This document shows positions 1 to 13,159 of a stretch of 21,274 nt of DNA, in pieces (position 1 is the stretch's first letter; each line of letters opens with the position of its first letter). This DNA is from Candidatus Oleincola secundus (GTDB lineage Bacteria > Atribacterota > Phoenicimicrobiia > Phoenicimicrobiales > Stramentimicrobiaceae). Both the position numbers and the translations under genes were made by a program. The stretch covers positions 1 through 21,274 of the forward strand of contig JAGYLS010000027.1 of NCBI GenBank assembly GCA_018400815.1, in the 5' to 3' direction. The notes under the pieces are model-generated. The model was not told where the DNA came from, made no database searches, and saw nothing but the letters and a program-made list of their open reading frames with translations.

Positions 1-4
1 AGAA

Positions 5-46
5 TTTATTAAACCATGAACAATTTCTTAGAAGGTGGTTATGGTT
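5..46. repeat. Degenerate copy of the palindromic element at 17628-17678
   Basis: Ungapped manual alignment of 5-46 with 17629-17670 gives 33/42 identities. The outer AACCAT...ATGGTT arms and GAAGGTGGT are retained. Confidence 0.6.
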
Positions 47-96
47 CAGAACAAAAAGGTACCAAGAAAAGGTTAAATCTGTTTTAGGGGGTCTTA

Positions 97-117
97 AAGC
101 CACCCGCTAGGTGGGTG
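97..117. other. GC-rich hairpin, possibly an IS200/IS605-type end remnant or a terminator
   Basis: AAAGC followed by CACCCGC-TAG-GTGGGTG, a 7-bp stem with one G-T pair. The resemblance to IS200-like subterminal hairpins is from recall only. Confidence 0.35.
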
Positions 118-238
118 CGATATTTACTAGTGCACAATAATAATGATGGAAATGATAAATTGATAGTTTTGTTATATTGATAATTAAAAAAGTATGAATT
201 ATTCAGATTTTATATGAAATAGAGGAGGCAACTATTTA

Positions 239-892
239 ATGTTTGAACTATTTAACAAGGGCGGTTTCTTGATGTATCCGATTTTTTTCAGTTCTTTGCT
301 GGCAATTGCCATCTTTTTCGAAAGGATGTTTTATTTAAAAAGCATTAAAACGTCTACCCGTAAGTTTGGCAACCGGATTAGCGATTTAATCCGAAAAGGC
401 AACATCAATTTTGCTATCTCTGCCTGTAGAAAAAATATTTCACCCATATCTCAAATTATTTTAGCAGCTTTATTGAAGCATGGTAGTTCAAGAGATGAAA
501 TAAAAGAAGTAATTGAAGATACTGCCCGACAGGAAGTTACTATTTTAGAAAGGAATTTACCAATCCTGGCCACTATTGCTAATATTGCACCTCTGCTGGG
601 TCTTTTAGGTACAGTTTTTGGTATGATTAAAGCATTTCAGGTTGTTTCCGTCGTTGGCGTAGGAAACCCTGAAGCATTAGCTGGAGGGATATCTGAGGCA
701 TTGCTGACGACTGCCTTTGGCCTTTCGGTGGCTATTCCCACTATTGTTGCCTATAATTATTTAGCACATCGCGTAGATAGACAGATTAAAGAGATGGAAT
801 CTACCAGTGTAGAAATATTAGAATTATTAACTATTAAAGAGGATGCTAAAGAGGAGGGTGTGAAAATAGATGAAATTTCATCACATCAATAA
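239..892 (+). CDS. exbB: MotA/TolQ/ExbB proton-channel protein
   Basis: Motifs APLLGLLGTVFGMIKAF and LAGGISEALLTTAFGLSVAIP; N-terminal GGFLMYPI...ERM; RBS GAGGAGG upstream. Confidence 0.92.
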   Translation: MFELFNKGGFLMYPIFFSSLLAIAIFFERMFYLKSIKTSTRKFGNRISDLIRKGNINFAISACRKNISPISQIILAALLKHGSSRDEIKEVIEDTARQEVTILERNLPILATIANIAPLLGLLGTVFGMIKAFQVVSVVGVGNPEALAGGISEALLTTAFGLSVAIPTIVAYNYLAHRVDRQIKEMESTSVEILELLTIKEDAKEEGVKIDEISSHQ

Positions 893-1283
893 AAAAACTA
901 TCGGGTTTGATTTGACGCCCCTGATTGATGTGGTCTTTTTGTTGCTTATATTTTTTATGCTGACCACTACCTTCATAAATGTTGAAAGTGGCGTAAAAGT
1001 GGATTTGCCTAGTGGTGATTTTGCAGAAGTAACTGAAAGGCAAAATGTAGTGGTTTCAATTACCGAAAACAATGTTTTATATATGAATAATAAATTGATT
1101 GATCCTGACAAACTATCTGAGAGTATCAGAGAAGAGATTGGAAAAAACATTGATTCCTTAGTTGTTTTAGAAGCGGATCAGAATATATCTCATGGGAAAG
1201 TAGTACGAGTAATGGATTTAATAAAGAAAGGTGGAGCAGAGAGGATTGCTATTGCTACAAAACCGAGTGGAGAGAGTCAATAA
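870..1283 (+). CDS. exbD: ExbD/TolR biopolymer transport protein
   Basis: DLTPLIDVVFLLLIFFM transmembrane motif with the essential Asp; VDLP; ADQNISHGKVVRVMD; overlaps the exbB 3' end; RBS GGAGG. Confidence 0.93.
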   Translation: MKFHHINKKTIGFDLTPLIDVVFLLLIFFMLTTTFINVESGVKVDLPSGDFAEVTERQNVVVSITENNVLYMNNKLIDPDKLSESIREEIGKNIDSLVVLEADQNISHGKVVRVMDLIKKGGAERIAIATKPSGESQ

Positions 1284-1292
1284 GGTGATTAA

Positions 1293-2792
1293 TTGAAAAA
1301 AACTATTGGATATAGAGCAAAAAGAAGAAAAATACGTTCTAAGAGTTTCTTAGGCCGTTCTTTTTTAATATCACTAATAATTAATATTTTATTTATATTT
1401 GCCTTTAGTAATTTAACTTCCTTTGATCTTCTCAATATACCAGAGGAAGATGAAATAATTATGGTTACTATGGTAGAATTGCCTACTACTAAAAACCCTG
1501 TTACCGCACGACCTGAAATTGAAACAGAAGAACCTGTAGCAGAGTTAAGTACAATGCCAAGAGTAGAGCCAGAACTACCTGAACCTGCTAGAATTCAGGA
1601 AACAGAAACCCAAGCAACACTAGAAAACGAAGATGAATTGGCGGAAATTGCTAGTAGGCCAAAGGCTGAAGTAAAGATTCCGGAGATTGAAATACCAGCC
1701 AGCGAAGAAATGTCAGCTGTGCAAGAAGAGGCTCCGGTAAGGCAAGATGTTCAAGTAGCCGCTAGGTCGCTAGCTCCTTCAATTACAAGCAGGAGAGATA
1801 TCGAGGGAGAAGTGCTAGAGCCGGGACAATTTGAAATTCAGGCAAGTTTAGGTCAAGAAGGAAGAGAGCGAATCGAATCTACTTATGGAAATACTGTAAC
1901 CCCTGGTCAAATAAGTGATTTACCTCGAAATATAGAAAAAGAATCTCCATTTGGGGATAGACCTCTAGCTGTTACAATTGATAATGCCAATGATTCCCGT
2001 CCTCAAAGTGGTTTAAATAAAGCAAACATTGTTTATGAAGTATTAGCAGAGGGGGGAATTACTCGTTTTTTAGCGATATATGCTGCAGAAGAATCTGATA
2101 AATTAGGTCCTGTACGTAGTGCCAGACCTTATTTTATTACAAAAGCCCTGGAGCATAATGCTATCTATGTTCATGCTGGAGAAAGTCCCGATGCTGCAAT
2201 CTTTATTAAAGAAGAAAAAGTTGATGATATAAATGAGTTGATTCACTATCAGCCGTTTTGGAGGTCCCAAGATCGGAGACCACCTCACAACCTTTACACC
2301 TCAACTGAACAGTTAAGAGAAGAAGCTAAAAATATTGGTTATATTGAAATGATTAATAAGGAAAGCTTCCAATTTGAAGTAGATGCAGATCAAATACTTA
2401 CTGGAAGAGATATAGCAAGAATAGATATAAGGTACAATGTTAATTATTCAGTAAGCTATCAATATAACCCGGAAATCCAAAGATATATTAGATTTATTAA
2501 TGGTGAGCCACATATTGATGCTGAAACTGGTGTACAGCTTCAAGCAAAAAATATTATTATCCAGCGTAGTGAGAGAAAAGTATTAGATAGTGAGGGAAGA
2601 TTGGCTATTGATTTGATTGGCAGCGGAGATGGCCTTATTATTTTTAATGGAAAATCAGAAGAGATTACTTGGGAAAAAGAGGGGTTAGCATCCAAAACAT
2701 ACTTCTACAACAAAAACGGAGATAGGCTGGCTATACAGCCCGGGAATGTTTGGATTCAAATAACTCATCCTGATACAGAAATTAGCTATTAA
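1293..2792 (+). CDS. TonB-like N-terminal anchor and Pro/Glu-rich linker fused to a C-terminal DUF3048 (YerB-like) domain
   Basis: TTG start with RBS AAGGTG. Basic N-terminus, then one TM helix (SFLISLIINILFIFAF) and an acidic Pro-rich linker (VEPELPEP, KIPEIEIP). From about residue 223: RPLAVTIDN..RPQSGL..VYE..EGGITRF..GPVRSARPYF..PHNLY..G(N)VWIQI, typical of DUF3048. Confidence 0.8.
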   Translation: MKKTIGYRAKRRKIRSKSFLGRSFLISLIINILFIFAFSNLTSFDLLNIPEEDEIIMVTMVELPTTKNPVTARPEIETEEPVAELSTMPRVEPELPEPARIQETETQATLENEDELAEIASRPKAEVKIPEIEIPASEEMSAVQEEAPVRQDVQVAARSLAPSITSRRDIEGEVLEPGQFEIQASLGQEGRERIESTYGNTVTPGQISDLPRNIEKESPFGDRPLAVTIDNANDSRPQSGLNKANIVYEVLAEGGITRFLAIYAAEESDKLGPVRSARPYFITKALEHNAIYVHAGESPDAAIFIKEEKVDDINELIHYQPFWRSQDRRPPHNLYTSTEQLREEAKNIGYIEMINKESFQFEVDADQILTGRDIARIDIRYNVNYSVSYQYNPEIQRYIRFINGEPHIDAETGVQLQAKNIIIQRSERKVLDSEGRLAIDLIGSGDGLIIFNGKSEEITWEKEGLASKTYFYNKNGDRLAIQPGNVWIQITHPDTEISY

Positions 2793-2865
2793 AATAGTAT
2801 CGCGTATCGAGTTTAAAGATAAATAAAAGTTTCAAGTTTCAAGATAAGAAATAAATACAAATATA

Positions 2866-2914
2866 AAGTTACGAGTTGCAAGTTGCAAGTTTCGAGTTTC
2901 GAGTTTTAAGTTAA
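2866..2914 (+). repeat. Heptamer tandem array, RAGTTNN x7
   Basis: AAGTTAC GAGTTGC AAGTTGC AAGTTTC GAGTTTC GAGTTTT AAGTTAA. Further clusters occur near 2827, 3042, 3084, 4486 and 4689. Confidence 0.9.
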
Positions 2915-2990
2915 GAAATAAAGGCAAAATAAGAAAAATGCAAATTACAAGGTGCAATTTAAACACAGCAAATACAAAATATAACAAACA

Positions 2991-3027
2991 AATTAACCAA
3001 TGAACTAATTAACTAATTAACTAATTA
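2991..3027 (+). repeat. Octamer tandem array, AATTAACY x4.5
   Basis: AATTAACC AATGAACT AATTAACT AATTAACT AATTA. A shorter version starts near 4602. Confidence 0.85.
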
Positions 3028-3389
3028 TAAAAATACTTCTAGGTTGTCGGTTTTCGGTTTTCAGTTGAAATACAAAGAATAAAAAGTTGCAAGTTACAAG
3101 TTTCAAGTCATGGAGTTTTAAATAAAGAAATAAACACAAAGTAAGAGGCAAGATGTAAGTTAATATAATTTACTAGTGTGCCCATTTAGCAATTAAAACC
3201 GTATAGAAAATTCTGTATAACGTGGAGAAAGAATCAGTTGAAAGGTAAAATATATAATCTAACCACAAAAAAGATAAAGACATTTTTCAGTTATCAGTTT
3301 ACAGTTAATAAATCATGATACAAGATACAAGTTGAAAAACAAGTTTTTTGAAAATTTCTCTCACCCCTCAGTGGATATTCGAAAACTTT

Positions 3390-3426: not shown

Positions 3427-3544
3427 AGGAAAAAAGATAGTTTTCAGTTTAAAAAGACAAAGATAAAAAGATACAATCAGTGCAATAGCTGTTAGAAGCA
3501 GGATGTAGCAATTATTTCTAATTAACCAAATATAGGGTTTGTAT

Positions 3545-4424
3545 ATGGAACCATCAACAGGAATTAATTGAATATTTTTTGGATTATCTGTCTCTGAAAG
3601 AGGCTTGGCTTATAATACAATTGTTTCTTACCGCTATGATTTATCTAAATATTACGAATTTATTGCTCAAAAAGATATTAATTTTCAAACAGTAAATCAC
3701 AAAGTTATTGATGAATATTATCATTATTTAGGAAATATTAATCTTGGGTTAATTCTATTTTTCGAAATTTAGTAGCATTAAAGATGTTTTATCGTTTTTA
3801 CTTACTGAGGGTTTTATTAAAAATGACTTAACCCATTTTATTGAATTCTCCCAGACTAAGAAAACCCCAGGCGCTCAATTTAAAAGAACTAGATAAAATA
3901 TTATCAGAAGAAAATTTTAAAGGTTTGTTAGGGGAAAAGAGATCAGGCAATCATGGAACTTTGTATGCTACTGGAATGAGAGTTACAGAATTGATAAGCC
4001 TGAGAAGAAATGATATAAAATTAGAACACTGACTTTTAATGCAATTGAAAAGGAAACAAAGAAAGATGGATACCTTTACTGATAGAGCACACAATATTTT
4101 AAATGAGTATATACAGTCTATTAGGGCCACGATTAATAAAAAGAAAGATACGAATTTATTATTTTTAAATAATCACGGAAATCCCATTTTCGACAGGGAG
4201 TTTTTATCTGATAAAAACTATGCCAAAATATCAGGAATAAAAAAGAATGTAACTCCACATACTTTTTAGGCACACTGGCAACACATCTAATTGAAAATGG
4301 GGCAGATCTAAGGTCGGTACAGGAAATGCTAGGACATTCCGATATTTCTACTACACAGATATATACCCATGTTAGTAGAAAATGGGTTAAGGAAGAATAT
4401 TTTAAGGCATTTCCAAGAGTGTAG
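3545..4424 (+). pseudogene. xerD: XerD-like tyrosine recombinase broken by at least ten small indels (pseudogene or consensus errors)
   Basis: Stitching frames gives: [120 protein letters not shown]...FPRV stop (4422-4424). ORFs 3841-4032 and 4039-4269 are fragments of this gene. Confidence 0.88.
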
Positions 4425-4447: not shown

Positions 4448-4779
4448 TTAAAATAGTATCGAGTATCGAGTTTAAAGATAAATAAAAGTTGCAAGTTACA
4501 AGTTGCAAGTTCGAGTCTTAAGTTAAGAAATAAAGGCAAAATAAGAAAATGCAAATTACAAGGTGCAATTTAAACACAGCAAATACAAAATATAACAAAC
4601 AAATTAACCAATGAACTAAGTAACCAATTAATTATAAAAATACTTCTAGGTTGTCGGTTTTGGTTTTCAGTTGAAATACAAAGAATAAAAGTTGCAAGTT
4701 TCAAGAAAGTTATAGAGTTTTAAATAAAGAAATAAACACAAAGTAAGAGGCAAGATGTAAATTAATATAATTTACCAGT
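4448..4779. repeat. Long direct repeat, copy 2 (332 bp)
   Basis: Colinear with 2789-3177. It lacks one heptamer-plus-spacer module and some repeat units, and has several substitutions. Confidence 0.95.
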
Positions 4780-4845
4780 TGACCAATTAAAAATAAAAGA
4801 TTTAATATGAAAATCAAAAATAATAAATCTGAAACTGGGGGAATA

Positions 4846-5672
4846 ATGGAACAATATTAGCTAAAATTGAAAAAAGCATTCAATCAATTCAAGAATATAG
4901 TAAAGTAAAACCAGAAATTGCCATTATCTTAGGGACTGGACTTGGAGAATTAGCTGAAGACATTGAAGACAAGGTGAGTATACCTTATCAAAAAATCAGC
5001 AATTTTCCAGTTTCTACCGTGCATGGACATAGTGGTAACCTTGTGTTGGGTAAAATAGAAGGTAAAAATGTTGTTGCAATGCAAGGGAGATTCCATTTCT
5101 ATGAAGGATACAGTATGAAGGAAATTACTTTTCCTGTCAGGGTGATGAAAAAATTAGGTGCTAATATTATCATTATTTCCAATGCTGCCGGCGGTATGAA
5201 TCGTTTTTTTAAAAGAGGAGATTTAATGTTGATTCATGACCACATTAATCTTATGGGAAGTAATCCTTTGATTGGTCCGAATGAGGAAAAGTTGGGTCCC
5301 CGTTTTCCCGATATGTCCCAGGCGTATGATCTAGAGTTGATTAAGTTGACTCAAAAAGTTGCCCTTGAAGAGGGAATTCTAATGCATAAAGGAATCTATG
5401 CAGGATTAACCGGGCCCATGCTGGAAACCCCGGCAGAGTATCGTTATCTAATAAAAATGGGCGCTGATGTCGTAGGAATGTCTACTGTTCCAGAAGTAAT
5501 TGTTGCTAATCATATGGGTATGCGAGTACTGGGAATATCATGCATTACTGATTTAGCTATTGATGGTGTAGTGGAGAAAGTCCAATTTGGGGAAATACTC
5601 AAAGCAGCAGCTAAATCTGAGCCAATCATGACTCGGATTGTAAGAAAGGTAATTAGAAATATTGATTATTAA
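4846..5672 (+). CDS. punA: Purine nucleoside phosphorylase (trimeric PNP/MTAP family) with an apparent 1-nt frameshift just after the start codon
   Basis: Motifs STVHGHSG, MQGRFHFYEGY, NAAGG, GPRFPDMS, GPMLETPAE, VGMSTVPE. The frame stays open upstream of the 4974 GTG (ILAKIEK...PEIAIILGTGLG). The ATG at 4846, preceded by GGGGGA, is one base out of frame. Confidence 0.9.
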
Positions 5673-6196: not shown

Positions 6197-7234
6197 ATGA
6201 GAAGAACTATAGAATGGAAAGAAAACAAAGTAATCATGATAGATCAGAGAAAACTGCCCCATAATTTAGAAATAATAACTTGCAAAAATCATCATGAAGT
6301 AGCCGATGCAATTAAGAAGATGGCTATTAGAGGTGCTCCTGCTATTGGTGCTGCAGCGGCATATGGAATGGCACTTGCTGCAATAAATATTAATTCAGAT
6401 AATATGTCAGAATTTCTTCAAGAATTAGAAAAAGCGAGCAATGAATTATCTCTTACCAGGCCTACTGCTGTTAATTTATTTTGGGCTATAAAAGAGATCT
6501 GGAGTATTATTGAGAGGGAAAAATATTCGGTGAGTGAAATTCGTGCTAATATTTTATTAAAAGCCGAGCAAATAGCACAACAGGATATTCAAACCAATTA
6601 TATGATAGGTAACAATGGTGTTGAATTATTTGACGATGGGGATAATATTTTAACTCATTGTAATGCAGGTTCACTGGCAACTGTATTTTATGGGACAGCT
6701 TTGGGAGTTATTAGATCAGTTTTTAAAAAGAAAGTTAATATTAAGGTTTTTGCGGATGAAACCAGACCAGTTTTACAGGGTGCCAGATTAACTGCCTGGG
6801 AGTTGAAGTCTGAAAAAATACCTATAACTCTTATCTGTGATTCTGTTGCTGGTTTTTTAATGTTTGAGAAAAAAATCAATAAAGTAATAGTTGGCGCAGA
6901 TAGAATAGCATCAAACGGTGATGTTGCTAATAAGATAGGTACTTATAGCCTTTCAGTGCTGGCAAAGGAACATAAAATACCTTTTTATGTAGCAGCTCCA
7001 ATATCAACCATTGATTTTTCAATCAAAAGAGGAAACGAAATACCAATCGAAGAGCGAGACAAAGAGGAAGTTACAAATATAATGGGACAATCGATTGCTC
7101 CTATTGGTATTGACGTATATAACCCGGCTTTTGATGTTACACCAAACAAAAATGTATCTGCAATAATCACAGAAAAAGGAATAATAAAGCCCCCTTTTTT
7201 AACCAATCTTAAAAAGGTAAATAAAAATAATTGA
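6197..7234 (+). CDS. mtnA: S-methyl-5-thioribose-1-phosphate isomerase
   Basis: IDQRKLP, IRGAPAIG, RPTAVNL, LTHCNAGSLAT, DETRPVLQGARLTAWEL, GDVANKIGTY, NPAFDVTP. Confidence 0.96.
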   Translation: MRRTIEWKENKVIMIDQRKLPHNLEIITCKNHHEVADAIKKMAIRGAPAIGAAAAYGMALAAININSDNMSEFLQELEKASNELSLTRPTAVNLFWAIKEIWSIIEREKYSVSEIRANILLKAEQIAQQDIQTNYMIGNNGVELFDDGDNILTHCNAGSLATVFYGTALGVIRSVFKKKVNIKVFADETRPVLQGARLTAWELKSEKIPITLICDSVAGFLMFEKKINKVIVGADRIASNGDVANKIGTYSLSVLAKEHKIPFYVAAPISTIDFSIKRGNEIPIEERDKEEVTNIMGQSIAPIGIDVYNPAFDVTPNKNVSAIITEKGIIKPPFLTNLKKVNKNN

Positions 7235-7257
7235 ATGCAATAGATTGAGGTGAAAAA

Positions 7258-8517
7258 ATGCAAAATCCGGATAAATTTTTAATTACCGGTGGTAAGCCGC
7301 TAAAGGGAACAGTTGTAATTGATGGTGCTAAAAATTCTGCTTTATCTATTATGGCTGCCTGTCTTTTGTCACGAGAGGTTAGCATTTTAGAAAATGTTCC
7401 CAGGTTAAAAGATGTATACAGTATGATTGAAGTAATTAAAATACTGGGAGTAAATGTGGAATGGATAGATAATAATACACTTTCTATAGATCCCGATGAT
7501 TTCAATAACTATGAAGCACCTTATGAGTTGGTGAAAACAATGAGAGCTTCTTTTTTGGTTATGGGACCATTATTAGCTAGGCTTAAAAAAGCCAAGATAT
7601 CATTACCAGGAGGATGTGCAATTGGTGCCAGACCTGTTGATTTTCACTTAAAAGGTTTTCGTGCCCTGGGTGCTAATATAACTACCGAAAAAGGATACAT
7701 TAAAGCAGAGGTAAAAGAATTAAAAGGAAATGATATTTATATTGATTTTCCTAGTCTTGGTGCGACTGAAAATATAATGATGGCGGCTTCATTAGCAGAA
7801 GGCACTACTATGATAGAGAATGCAGCAAAAGATCCTGAGGTTATTGAATTAGGAAATTTCCTAAATAAGATGGGAGCTAAAATTGATGGATTGGGTAATG
7901 ACATTGTTACTATTACCGGAGTAAAAAGCTTAAAAGGTGTAAAGTATAGAATTATTCCTGATCGAATAGAGGGTGGAACATACATGATTGCCGCTGCAAT
8001 TACTAGAGGAAATGTAGAAATAAAGAATGTCAATCCTTATTATTTAAAATCATGTATTGTAAAACTTGAAGAATCTGGTTTGAGAGTAAGTACCAAAGAT
8101 GATAGTATATTTATTAGTGACCCGGAAGGAATCAAATCAGTTGATATCAAAACTATGCCATTTCCTGGTTTTCCTACTGATATGCAAGCACAATTTATGG
8201 CTTTGATGACTATTGCTAATGGAACTAGCATTATTACTGAGAATGTTTTTGAAAATCGCTTTGCGCATGCAGGCGATTTGAGAAGAATGGGTGCTGATAT
8301 CAAAATAGAAGGAAGGAATAGTATCATTAAAGGAGTTAAAAAGCTTAGTGCTGCACCTGTTATGGCTTCTGATTTAAGAGGAGGTGCTGCCCTCGTATTA
8401 GGGGCATTAGTTGCAGAAGGAACAACAGAAATCAGCAGGATTTATCATATTGATAGAGGCTATGTTAGGTTAGAGGAAAAATTGAGGTCATTAGGTGCTA
8501 ACGTTAGAAGAGAATAA
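7258..8517 (+). CDS. murA: UDP-N-acetylglucosamine 1-carboxyvinyltransferase
   Basis: GAKN, MRAS, LPGGCAIGARPVDFH (catalytic Cys present), PGFPTDMQAQ, FENRF, DLRGGA, HIDRGY. Confidence 0.97.
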   Translation: MQNPDKFLITGGKPLKGTVVIDGAKNSALSIMAACLLSREVSILENVPRLKDVYSMIEVIKILGVNVEWIDNNTLSIDPDDFNNYEAPYELVKTMRASFLVMGPLLARLKKAKISLPGGCAIGARPVDFHLKGFRALGANITTEKGYIKAEVKELKGNDIYIDFPSLGATENIMMAASLAEGTTMIENAAKDPEVIELGNFLNKMGAKIDGLGNDIVTITGVKSLKGVKYRIIPDRIEGGTYMIAAAITRGNVEIKNVNPYYLKSCIVKLEESGLRVSTKDDSIFISDPEGIKSVDIKTMPFPGFPTDMQAQFMALMTIANGTSIITENVFENRFAHAGDLRRMGADIKIEGRNSIIKGVKKLSAAPVMASDLRGGAALVLGALVAEGTTEISRIYHIDRGYVRLEEKLRSLGANVRRE

Positions 8518-9701: not shown

Positions 9702-11582
9702 ATGATATCATTAAAAATAAGTAAGATAAAAAAAGAGTTAAATAAGATAATAATATTTTCTTTTTTCTCGATACTATGCTTATTATTATTACAGTCGGTC
9801 ATTTGTGCCCAAGAAGAGTTTATGCCTATTGATGAAATATGTTCTGGCATGAAAGGTATCGGAAAAACTGTCTTTTCAGGAATAGATATTGAAGAATTTG
9901 ATGTTGATGTAATTGACATTATTTCGGGTACGGGAATTAATAATAGTTATTTATTGGTTAAATTAAGTGGGGATAAAATTGATGAAAATGGTGGTATTTC
10001 TGCCGGAATGAGTGGAAGCCCTGTTTATATTGATGGAAAATTAGTAGGGGCTATATCACATGCCTGGGAAATGAGCGAACATAACCTATGCCTTGTTACA
10101 CCAATAGATAGGATGATAAAATTACTTGATTATACTACTGAAAATAATCAAAAAATAATTTCTGATGTCATAGACAACCATACAGTTTCTGTTTCTTTGG
10201 ATAATGACTTGCGAAAAAATATAGTAAGAAACATTCCGGAATATGAGAATGTTATTAATTTTTCTGAACAATTAGAAAAAAATATTTCTTCACTTGATTT
10301 TAGATATATCCAATCACCTTTATTGATTAGTGGGTTTGATGGACGGGCACATAAATTAATTAAAAGTAATCTTCTTAAAAAGGGTGCCACATCCGTTAAA
10401 AATATCTCTGAATTGCAAAATATTAATACAGAATTGGACATTGAAGCGGAAGTAAGGGAATTAGAATCTGGCTCTGCAGTTGGTGTACAATTATCTACTG
10501 GAGATGCAAGTGTCCTAACTATTGGGACAGCAACCTATCGCAATGATAATTTTGTTTTAGCATTTGGTCATCCTTTTATGCATCTTGGTAATGTATCTTA
10601 CCTTTTTTCTGCGGTTTATATATACTATAGTTTCCCCAGTATTGTTATGCCTTTTAAGGTAGGGTTTCCTTATTGTTTGGTAGGGGAAGTAACACAAGAT
10701 AGAGATGCGGGTATTTTGGCAAATTTGAATCGTTTTCCGCAGATTGTATCATGTAAAGTGAAAGTTTACGATATAGATAAGAGTGTAAACATTCAAAGTG
10801 GCTCAAAAATTGTGCCACAAAACGATATTGTACAAAGTATAACCAGTGCGCTGCTGATACAATCAATAGACCACGCAATTGATAGAATAGGGCAAGGGAC
10901 AGCCACTGTTAGTATAGAATTACGAGCTGAAAAATCAGGAGAAATGCTAATATATGAAAATATGTTTTTTAGCAAAGACGATATTGCTATACAATGTACT
11001 AAGGATTTTGAAGAAATAATTGATTTGATGATTAACAACTATGGTGAAAAAATAGCATTAAGTGAGATTAAAGTTGATATTAGCATAAGGGAGCAAAATC
11101 AAAGCGCTATTATAAAAGAAGTAAAATTGAGTGAAGAAGAATTTCTACCTGGTGATACTATAGATGTAGAAGTTAAAATTAAGCCATTTCGGAAACCTGA
11201 AGAAATCAAAATATCAAGAATAGAATTGCCTGATGATCTGGAACCAGGAGAGGCAGTATTGATTGTTAGAGGAGGTTCATCGACGGAAATAATAAGTGAT
11301 AAAGCAAATTTTGAAGACAAAGATAAATACTTATTAGATGGATGGGAAGAAATCAAAACACATTTTCAGAAGAAGATAAAAAATAATCAAATTGTTGCCG
11401 AGTTAATTCCCATAAATGAACGAGAAAGATTATCCTTAATAAATCAAGAAGAAAATGTAAAAATAGATGAAAATGAATTAAGAACAATTATGGAAACTGA
11501 TTTAATTGTGGAAGGATATCAGGAAATGTACTTGAATATCAAGAATGAAGAAAACAAAAGCAAGGACAGGAATCATGAGTAA
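9702..11582 (+). CDS. Exported SpoIVB-like peptidase S55 domain protein
   Basis: N-terminal hydrophobic signal; GMKGIGKTVFSG; GISAGMSGSPVYIDGKLVGAISHA; IGTATY...LAFGHPF. Start codon uncertain. Confidence 0.82.
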   Translation: MISLKISKIKKELNKIIIFSFFSILCLLLLQSVICAQEEFMPIDEICSGMKGIGKTVFSGIDIEEFDVDVIDIISGTGINNSYLLVKLSGDKIDENGGISAGMSGSPVYIDGKLVGAISHAWEMSEHNLCLVTPIDRMIKLLDYTTENNQKIISDVIDNHTVSVSLDNDLRKNIVRNIPEYENVINFSEQLEKNISSLDFRYIQSPLLISGFDGRAHKLIKSNLLKKGATSVKNISELQNINTELDIEAEVRELESGSAVGVQLSTGDASVLTIGTATYRNDNFVLAFGHPFMHLGNVSYLFSAVYIYYSFPSIVMPFKVGFPYCLVGEVTQDRDAGILANLNRFPQIVSCKVKVYDIDKSVNIQSGSKIVPQNDIVQSITSALLIQSIDHAIDRIGQGTATVSIELRAEKSGEMLIYENMFFSKDDIAIQCTKDFEEIIDLMINNYGEKIALSEIKVDISIREQNQSAIIKEVKLSEEEFLPGDTIDVEVKIKPFRKPEEIKISRIELPDDLEPGEAVLIVRGGSSTEIISDKANFEDKDKYLLDGWEEIKTHFQKKIKNNQIVAELIPINERERLSLINQEENVKIDENELRTIMETDLIVEGYQEMYLNIKNEENKSKDRNHE

Positions 11583-12270
11583 TATAGCTGTCATCGCTGC
11601 CGCCGGAAACGGAGAAAGACTTAATTGCCATATAAGTAAAATGTTGGCAAAAATATTAGACAAGCCAGTACTTTCTTATACCCTGGATCAATTTGAAAAG
11701 TCAAAAAAAATTGATGAAATCGTGTTAGTTGTTCATCCAAAGGATTTGAAATGTATTGAAGAGGAGATTGTAAAAAAGTATAAATATAATAAGCTAAGTG
11801 CCATAGTTTTGGGCGGACTGACCAGGCAGGAGTCTGTATATCGTGGGTTGCAATCTATCAAGAAAACCGATGGTATTGCTTGTATCCATGATGGTGCGAG
11901 GCCATTGGTTGAAGGATGGATGATTGAAGAGACTATAAAAATAACTGATTCTTATGATGGAGCAATTATGGCGGTACCGGTAGTTGAAACAATAAAGAAA
12001 GCATTATTACAGGAAGGGTTAGTTGAAAAAACAGTCAATCGTGATGAATTTTGGATTATTCAAACACCCCAGACTTTTAAGTTAAAGTATATTAGGGAAT
12101 TATATAAGAAAGCAAAAGAAGAAGGACTAAAAGCCACCGATGATTCTTCAATAGTAGAGCATTATGGAGGAAGTGTAAAAATTGTAGAAAGTTCAAGAGA
12201 AAACATTAAGATAACTACATCTGTAGATATGGTATTAGCAGAAATATTAATGAAGAATCGAATTAAATAA
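11575..12270 (+). CDS. ispD: 2-C-methyl-D-erythritol 4-phosphate cytidylyltransferase
   Basis: AAAGNGERL, GGLTRQESV, IHDGARP, QTPQTF, TDDSS, NIKITT. Start set at the second Met (11575), after AGGA and overlapping the upstream stop codon. Confidence 0.94.
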   Translation: MSNIAVIAAAGNGERLNCHISKMLAKILDKPVLSYTLDQFEKSKKIDEIVLVVHPKDLKCIEEEIVKKYKYNKLSAIVLGGLTRQESVYRGLQSIKKTDGIACIHDGARPLVEGWMIEETIKITDSYDGAIMAVPVVETIKKALLQEGLVEKTVNRDEFWIIQTPQTFKLKYIRELYKKAKEEGLKATDDSSIVEHYGGSVKIVESSRENIKITTSVDMVLAEILMKNRIK

Positions 12271-12271
12271 G

Positions 12272-13159
12272 ATGATTAAACTAAGGAGTTATGCAAAATT
12301 AAACCTATATTTAGATATTGGCGAAAAATTGGATAATGGTTATCATAACATTGAAACTATATTCCAAACAATTAATCTATTTGATGAAATAAAAATTGAA
12401 AAATTGAATGAACCTACCTATTACATAGTTTGTAATAATGATGAAGTGCCTGTCGGGAAAGAAAGCATAGTCTATCGAGCGATAGAGATAATAATGAAAG
12501 GCAAAAATAAGGGTGTTGCTGTATCAATTGATAAGAAAATTCCTCTTGCCTCAGGATTAGGTGGCGGTTCCTCAAATGTTGCATCTATATTACTAGGTAT
12601 TTGTAAGTTATTTCAAATAAAAGTAAGTACCTCACAATTAATTGCTATTGCTACCAGTCTGGGAATGGACATACCCTTTTTTATTGAAAGAGGAACAGTT
12701 TATGCCAGAGGAAGGGGTGAAATCCTTTTTCCGCTTACTTTAGAAGATCGGCCGATTCATTTGATATTAGTAAACCCGGGGATTGCGATATCAACAAAGT
12801 GGGCTTATCAAGCTTTTGACGAAGATAAAAAAGAGGATTTCAATAAACCAATTTTAGATATTATTAGATATATAAACCAAAAAGATGTGATTAACATATC
12901 TAAGATTAGAAAATATATCTATAATAGGTTTGATTCTATTATATGCAAAAAATATCCCCTAATAAGTGAAATTAAAAGTCAACTAATAGAATTTGGGGCT
13001 TTATCTGCTACAATATCCGGTAGTGGGCCAACTGTATATGGAGTTATGGAAAATAAACAAAAAGCGGATGAAGTTTACAAAAAATTAAAAAATCAATATC
13101 CATTTGTATATAGAGCAATGACTATAAGGGCAAAAAATATATTTATAAATAATGATTGA
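12272..13159 (+). CDS. ispE: 4-diphosphocytidyl-2-C-methyl-D-erythritol kinase
   Basis: AKLNLYLDI, GYHNIETIF, KKIPLASGLGGGSSN (GHMP kinase loop), GRGE, SGSGPTV. Confidence 0.93.
   Translation: MIKLRSYAKLNLYLDIGEKLDNGYHNIETIFQTINLFDEIKIEKLNEPTYYIVCNNDEVPVGKESIVYRAIEIIMKGKNKGVAVSIDKKIPLASGLGGGSSNVASILLGICKLFQIKVSTSQLIAIATSLGMDIPFFIERGTVYARGRGEILFPLTLEDRPIHLILVNPGIAISTKWAYQAFDEDKKEDFNKPILDIIRYINQKDVINISKIRKYIYNRFDSIICKKYPLISEIKSQLIEFGALSATISGSGPTVYGVMENKQKADEVYKKLKNQYPFVYRAMTIRAKNIFINND

Follow-up and report, generated by a model that had tools for sequence, protein, structure and literature searches.

Contig JAGYLS010000027.1 of Candidatus Oleincola secundus (phylum Atribacterota; assembly GCA_018400815.1), of which positions 1 to 21,274 are called the window here, begins with an operon in which an ExbB/ExbD-type motor gene pair is followed by a gene for a TonB/TolA-like stalk protein that ends in a DUF3048 domain. 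Judged by its motifs, this protein is very probably a motor-driven transducer with a new head. A fourth conserved gene, for a giant secreted protein with tetratricopeptide repeats (TPRs), belongs to the machine and lies outside the window. Our best reading of the operon is a Pal-less, Tol/Agl-Glt-like core envelope machine, and we lean, by a modest degree, towards one in which the motor grips the stalk, the head docks on the TolB-N/TPR scaffold and the whole plays a Tol-like role. The motor would then move or activate the DUF3048 domain, as inferred in a preliminary description of the sequence. The parts of the operon in the window are as follows.

1..238, + strand: intergenic DNA; in the same-genus genome G001 the equivalent DNA follows the 3' end of the TolB-N/TPR gene
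239..892, + strand: exbB/tolQ-like gene for motor A subunit, 217 amino acids (aa) (PF01618, E 2e-36)
870..1283, + strand: exbD/tolR-like gene for motor B subunit, 137 aa (PF02472, E 8e-31)
1293..2792, + strand: gene for the TonB/TolA-like transducer ending in DUF3048, 499 aa, TTG start (open reading frame (ORF) list, Pfam)
1356..1421, + strand: single transmembrane (TM) helix, residues 22-43, with S27-x3-N31 (hydrophobicity, AlphaFold2)
1422..1940, + strand: Glu/Pro-rich periplasmic linker (composition, AlphaFold2 disorder)
1458..1478, + strand: D-box-like strand I56-E62, predicted ExbD-binding site (likeness to E. coli TonB 45-51)
1773-1940, + strand: distal linker, residues 161-216, more conserved than the proximal part
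1947..2756, + strand: DUF3048 + DUF3048_C head, YerB fold (Pfam, structure match)

The order exbB, exbD and, after 9 nucleotides, a 499-aa gene was found as previously described, with a 23-nucleotide overlap between the two motor genes. MotA/TolQ/ExbB and ExbD/TolR are an adjacent gene pair and both Pfam families score above cut-off, while every NCBIfam ExbB, TolQ, ExbD and TolR equivalog falls under its cut-off, so that the motor is not assignable to ExbBD or to TolQR. The window ExbB keeps pore residues Thr125, Thr158 and Pro167, which by eye align with E. coli ExbB Thr148, Thr181 and Pro190, whose roles are described in PMC12215075 (papers are cited here by identifier). These pore motifs are kept in 50/50 full-length copies from the phylum, and the proton-path residue of the window ExbD, Asp20, belongs to a strict Asp pattern present in 48/53 full-length copies.

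The stalk protein consists of a basic N-terminal tail with a cytoplasmic part of about 21 residues, one hydrophobic segment, a linker and the head; in the AlphaFold2 model, built on an alignment of 22 rows, residues 22-43 are helical, the linker is disordered and the head is predicted with confidence. The earlier assignment of a TonB-like build thus stood for the basic tail, the single TM helix and the long linker (residues 43-216, 174 aa, mostly with pLDDT, the model's per-residue confidence, below 50); its wording of the linker did not, as this is Glu-rich (19%) more than Pro-rich (9.8%). Within the family, the distal linker is 71% identical, compared with 58-61% for the proximal linker. Pfam places DUF3048 at residues 219-350 (E 3e-46) and DUF3048_C at 377-488 (E 4e-31), and finds no match to TonB_C, TonB_2 or TolA in the stalk protein at E<=0.1. 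The NCBIfam models for TonB (E 8e-4) and TolA (TIGR02794, E 0.015, residues 22-147) cover only the TM helix and linker and stay far under their cut-offs. A search of residues 1-215 against the ESM Atlas returned no match at or above 0.9, the nearest named cluster, TonB_N at 0.76, being a lead only. Pfam scans of 12 window ORFs agree with the earlier remark that the window holds no receptor, tolB or pal gene; the other window ORFs were named by eye from their translations.

The fusion is genuine. A contig from a different study (X3, record 27) reads positions 1086-2087 with 0 differences, crossing the junction of linker and DUF3048, and the fusion is therefore not an assembly artefact; X2 shares its study with the best DNA holder, and only X3 was counted as independent. 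A full-length stalk, defined as a single uninterrupted match from residue <=23 to >=491, occurs in 73/86 genomes of the phylum, with all seven families represented; 7 further genomes have partial or broken copies only, and none was seen in 6 genomes that are 60-90% complete. A misassembly or one-off fusion, named as a danger in the preliminary description, is ruled out by this phylum-wide presence together with the independent bridging contig.

Among 60 Atribacterota loci (L050-L109), 12 end within 480 nucleotides of the stalk gene, and exbB plus exbD lie directly upstream in 48/48 of those with enough flank, which upholds the linkage proposed for the window. The neighbours, obgE or pstB upstream and lgt, xerD, pnp and mtnA downstream, are syntenic within clades. 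Short pieces from two metatranscriptome assemblies map to the operon but are no evidence of transcription either way, because such pieces also cover intergenic and xerD DNA and come mostly from relatives. Some genomes of one family carry exbB-exbD twice, in blocks of about 1.1 kb, 99.9-100% identical, that flank the giant TPR gene (L033, at 1660-2807 and 6408-7555; L039; L041; L106; also closed genome G059).

Motor-coupling motifs of the stalk

The TM helix carries S27-x3-N31, the Asn form of the Ser-x3-His motif by which E. coli TonB and TolA dock on their motor (PMC12215075), and in E. coli TonB the replacement of His20 by Asn is stated to be fully functional (bioRxiv 2021.12.08.471779, citing its ref. 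28). S-x3-[N/H] is present in every Atribacterota locus that reaches the N-terminus (58/58, with 57 N and 1 H; the other 2 of the 60 are truncated there and stand outside the count), the His form occurring in the most divergent family. None of 74 stand-alone DUF3048 loci, taken from Bacillota genomes and metagenomes after exclusion of three loci without a DUF match, has the motif (0/74) or an exbB or exbD gene in its fetched flank, and among 150 DUF3048 cluster representatives it appears in four only, all stalk-type. E. coli TonB binds ExbD through its D-box (PMC10907165); the strand I56-E62 right after the TM helix matches E. coli TonB 45-51 at 5/7 residues, as a sequence pattern only. This D-box-like pattern was found in 47/58 phylum loci and 0/74 controls, counts to be read with the fact that the pattern was tuned on the very sequences counted.

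Both motifs extend beyond the phylum. Of 120 DUF3048 proteins longer than 507 aa that were listed, 12 have an N-terminal TM S-x3-H, a beta-type motif and a linker of 320-510 aa; ten are of one type that includes the Trueperaceae-labelled P0393, and the other two include P0008. In a midpoint-rooted FastTree phylogeny built from 282 columns of 167 DUF3048 domains, with Trueperaceae proteins left out, the Atribacterota heads join in one clade (support 0.99) and the position of P0008 is poorly supported (0.39). Nested in the Atribacterota stalk clade is P0006, a short TM-DUF3048 protein of 373 aa without stalk motifs, possibly a derived, motor-free copy.

Several observations weigh against motor coupling. 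The docking motif is incomplete, with S-N-F-T in place of S-H-L-S (Phe and Thr for Leu and Ser), and by eye TM1 of the window ExbB has no equivalent of E. coli Trp38, the ExbB Trp that contacts TonB His20 (PMC12215075); the true Ton ExbB of the same genome likewise has no such equivalent. The controls are an imperfect group, mostly with lipoprotein signal peptides and about 5 of them truncated, and the phylum loci are kin rather than independent samples. The flanking housekeeping genes xerD, pnp, mtnA and obgE are syntenic as well, so that part of the exbBD linkage is plain conservation of genome order. Finally, the 3-kb contig of P0008 (696 aa), a stalk-type protein with both motifs, carries no exbBD, and the next gene upstream of P0008 is a divergent one.

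Some of these points would also fit a stalk that is merely a membrane-tethered YerB beside an orphan motor and receives no energy: P0008 is built alike with no exbBD next to it, the region keeps its gene order in general, and the NCBIfam TonB and TolA matches fall under cut-off. We consider this improbable. Both coupling motifs are conserved phylum-wide and recur in Trueperaceae-type proteins, tonB often lies distant from its own motor (PMC12204202), and the sole ExbB-type motor of closed genome G045 has no TonB_C protein to drive.

Receptors and Tol-Pal across the phylum

In place of an energised DUF3048 head one could imagine an atypical TonB that energises receptors through DUF3048, or a motor that serves an ordinary TonB of the genome. 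The source genome (G000) does have one TonB_C protein and one receptor barrel, and E. coli shows cross-talk between its Ton and Tol motors (PMC12215075). However, a check for a separate tonB and receptor, suggested in the preliminary description, located both on contig C24 next to an exbBD pair of their own, 35%/30% identical to that of the window. This locus (C24:14252-21895) is a canonical receptor-tonB-exbB-exbD cluster beside an ABC uptake system, BtuB-like by eye. Receptors were found in 25/86 genomes of the phylum and TonB_C in 21/86, and the four closed genomes G045, G059, G070 and G072 carry the operon with neither a PF00593 receptor barrel nor TonB_C (0/4). The earlier claim that the role is not tied to TonB-dependent receptors is backed by these closed genomes, and the receptor-energising reading, largely refuted for PF00593-type receptors, appears very improbable overall.

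The same genomes bear on Tol-Pal. Closed G045 has a single MotA/ExbB gene, which is the operon's own, along with BamA and no OmpA/Pal domain. TolB reached the TIGR02800 cut-off in 0/5 genomes tested, and the genes 3' of the stalk, (lgt)-xerD-pnp, include no tolB or pal. OmpA-type domains are patchy (33/51 phylum genomes), and three closed genomes have one beside a flagellar-type motA. A 1062-aa frame on contig C124 of the source genome (about 11480-13063) is one ORF with matches to a TolB-like propeller and an Omp85 barrel; it resembles the OMP-TolB-like proteins of PMC12204202 and is a candidate outer-membrane partner.

The DUF3048 head and the giant TPR scaffold

The only clear structural match of the head is B. 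subtilis YerB (2PSB; Foldseek E 1.5e-27), with which VIA gives Z 36.2 and a root-mean-square deviation (rmsd) of 2.0 over 273 aligned residues at 35% identity; the next-best match has Z 4.7. The YerB fold fully accounts for residues 216-499, and a cryptic TonB_C was found neither by Pfam and NCBIfam nor by Foldseek and VIA. The DUF3048/YerB-like nature of the C-terminal part and the lack of TonB_C and TolA domain III, both recognised earlier from the letters alone, were thus borne out by hidden Markov model scans and fold search. Eleven positions of the head (N231, E249, E253, R258, R275, S276, R278, H294, R324, N333 and R400) show 92-100% conservation across 145 further cluster representatives, and the keeping of these near-invariant residues suggests that a ligand or catalytic site is retained. 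In other proteins DUF3048 occurs as a lipoprotein or joined to LysM (6 of the 120 long proteins listed), to PEGA, or to polysaccharide deacetylase or beta-lactamase-like domains. These surface-module fusions and lipoprotein forms point to a ligand on the wall or surface, as a lead rather than a function. No fold match beyond YerB adds a functional clue. The excerpts of PMC11658791, PMC12505986, PMC13068155 and PMC10849945 contain nothing on DUF3048 function or this operon, and the literature searched, with subscription journals and some supplements outside the search, contains no tie of DUF3048/YerB to a motor. The source genome also encodes a stand-alone divergent DUF3048 paralogue of 316 aa (C137:32918-33868) in which several family-conserved positions are changed.

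The fourth gene lies upstream of exbB and encodes a protein of about 1,130-1,240 aa with a signal-peptide-like N-terminus and many TPRs. It was found in 42/42 loci whose flank measures 2.5 kb or more, all 18 misses being contig-truncated. In the source genome it falls in an assembly gap: neither obgE nor the giant TPR gene was found in the assembly, and contig C188 stops just after rpmA. In G001, of the same genus, the TPR gene directly precedes DNA 95% identical to the window start, and window 47-1292 is 95% identical to locus L067. An ORF at C90:26299-27225 of the source genome was considered as the missing scaffold and rejected; it is a separate secreted TPR paralogue of 308 aa, 31% identical to the most conserved part of the scaffold (about residues 230-500). 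The N-terminal domain of the scaffold was modelled with a pLDDT of 94. Among its structural matches the TolB N-terminal fold (Z 12.8, rmsd 2.5 over 124 aligned residues) shares the top rank with FlgT and CT253, ahead of LpoB and PelC; by sequence, CsgG was found in only 4/38 members and no PDB match under E 0.76. When the N-terminal 577 aa of the TPR protein and the 287-aa DUF3048 part of G001's cognate pair were submitted to complex prediction (37-row alignments), the pair scored 0.55 and the best of 3 controls 0.00; the runs share at least 53% of contacts and partner pLDDT is at least 85. The mark used was reached by 116/157 solved complexes and 2/215 mismatches in a benchmark, where scores of 0.60 or below comprised just 18 solved complexes and both mismatches. 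The prediction weakly suggests binding between the head and the N-terminal half of the scaffold.

From these elements a working model of the machine can be drawn. The motor, which by its sequence keeps the proton-path residues, would have the S-x3-N helix packed on ExbB, and an ExbD dimer would capture the D-box-like strand as in Ton and Tol. The head may bind the N-terminal half of the approximately 1,200-aa TPR protein, and the conserved distal linker may follow the groove of the TPRs, in the way that GltG lies on GltD in a Myxococcus model. Motor cycles would then pull or release the head-scaffold unit on a ligand in the wall or outer membrane, presumably bound at the conserved Arg/Glu/His site of the head, and the machine would maintain the envelope much as Tol does, in a phylum in which no Tol-Pal was found. 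Some further points count against this model. The predicted fold of the scaffold N-terminal domain is common to LpoB, CsgG, FlgT and PelC, and being shared by several families is no proof of a Tol role; it names a superfamily, not a function. The complex score lies in a weak band, more often wrong than right unless the pair is likely beforehand, and gives no interface. The outer gap of A. laminatus (7 nm; PMC7736352) is far narrower than what the stalk could span.

A motor-coupled stalk could also do without the scaffold, its head being a wall or glycan enzyme or binding module that is switched or dragged directly, with the TPR protein acting elsewhere or as an assembly factor. The charged and polar near-invariant residues, of the kind expected where a ligand is bound or a reaction catalysed, would fit such a head, as would the fusions to LysM, PEGA, polysaccharide deacetylase and beta-lactamase-like domains. 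DUF3048 moreover occurs motor-free, mostly as lipoprotein or TM-anchored protein, in Bacillota and others, and thus has a job independent of motor and TPR protein. By contrast, no known enzyme was found among the fold matches (best non-YerB Z 4.7), and the complex prediction lends some weight, if weakly, to TPR binding. We regard this alternative as rather unlikely, little more than one chance in four; it and scaffold docking are not exclusive.

Flanking DNA, related systems and envelope biology

Downstream of the operon, a xerD-like recombinase gene (window 3536-4423) is split over several frames and the start of pnp (about 4845-4974) is frame-shifted too, both being intact in relatives. Contigs from other runs differ from the window by indels at 4137, 4189, 4212, 4267 and 4270, and the broken xerD and pnp may therefore be assembly errors rather than pseudogenes. 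The xerD region is flanked by an AT-rich direct repeat of about 320-400 nucleotides (2789-3186 and 4448-4788; 91% over 319 nucleotides) made of short A/T-rich sub-repeats. A short intergenic repeat 5' of exbB (61-135) has 74 blastn matches in the genome, resembles a repetitive extragenic palindromic element or a miniature inverted-repeat transposable element, and is covered by contigs at high depth in both DNA and RNA runs; it is a probable cause of the contig break. Elsewhere in the source genome (C137:25449-28081), a pyruvate phosphate dikinase-like gene, named by eye, occupies two overlapping frames, a possible indel error.

Among described systems, the nearest class to the stalk is that of vWA-headed transducers beside TPR and tolQR-like genes. 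These proteins carry an SHLS motif, are encoded in PVC bacteria after a TPR gene and tolQ/tolR-like genes, and have no known function (PMC12204202). They share with the stalk a TM helix, a predicted motor box, a disordered linker and a non-TonB head. Unlike them, the stalk has a DUF3048/YerB head and no vWA domain (Pfam, fold search), Asn for His in most copies, a single exbD in place of two different tolR-like genes, and a TPR partner of about 1,200 aa, one domain of which has the TolB-N fold. Neither DUF3048 nor YerB occurs in the supplement file of that paper.

The operon would work like TonB/TolA yet belongs to neither. With E. coli TonB-ExbB-ExbD (PMC12215075, PMC10907165) it shares the motor families and residues, the D-box-like strand, a long linker and, in part, the Ser-x3-His(Asn) helix; it differs in having no TonB_C, no receptors in four closed genomes, and a core rather than patchy presence in the phylum. 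Tol-Pal likewise has a conserved core order of motor, motor and transducer, and CpoB of Tol-Pal is a TPR protein; the partner in the present operon combines the TolB N-terminal fold with TPRs, which stand where TolB has its beta-propeller. By contrast, the operon has no TolA domain III, no TolB (5/5 genomes) and no OmpA/Pal domain (closed G045). Myxococcus Agl-Glt (PMC11761067) also has a TolQR-like motor, a TonB-like stalk and a periplasmic TPR pillar of about 1,200 aa, and a published AlphaFold model in the same paper shows the GltG linker wrapping GltD with the head at the GltD N-terminal domain. GltG, however, has one or more cytoplasmic FHA domains and a TonB-CTD-like head, neither of which the stalk has, and Agl-Glt comprises at least 17 proteins and drives gliding; the likeness of the scaffold to GltD is one of build. 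B. subtilis YerB has the same two-domain fold (PF11258 + PF17479) and near-invariant residues as the head, while typical YerB/DUF3048 members are lipoproteins of about 330-380 aa or short TM-anchored proteins with no motor nearby.

A more detailed and more tentative proposal, which we think possible but unlikely as a whole at about three chances in ten, is a Pal-less counterpart of Tol-Pal in Terrabacteria-type diderms, where the motor would pull the head along the scaffold and mechanically switch a wall-acting DUF3048 site. The operon would then encode a core trans-envelope machine of Atribacterota with stalk-type relatives in Trueperaceae, and it would mark which of the three membrane-like layers of the phylum is energised.

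In the literature searched, as far as the excerpts go, the heads on ExbBD/TolQR-driven stalks are TonB_C, TolA domain III and recently vWA, so that DUF3048 is a new output. The operon gives the YerB family, which has one structure, a testable context. Named cluster members come from Thermatribacter velox and Atrimonas thermophila, described as isolates (PMC13408713), which makes biochemistry feasible. Close to universal in Atribacterota, the operon belongs to a phylum in which the analysis found no Tol-Pal and whose three-layer envelope is debated (PMC7736352, PMC13408713); the places of the motor and the stalk would reveal the energised layer and the nature of the periplasm.

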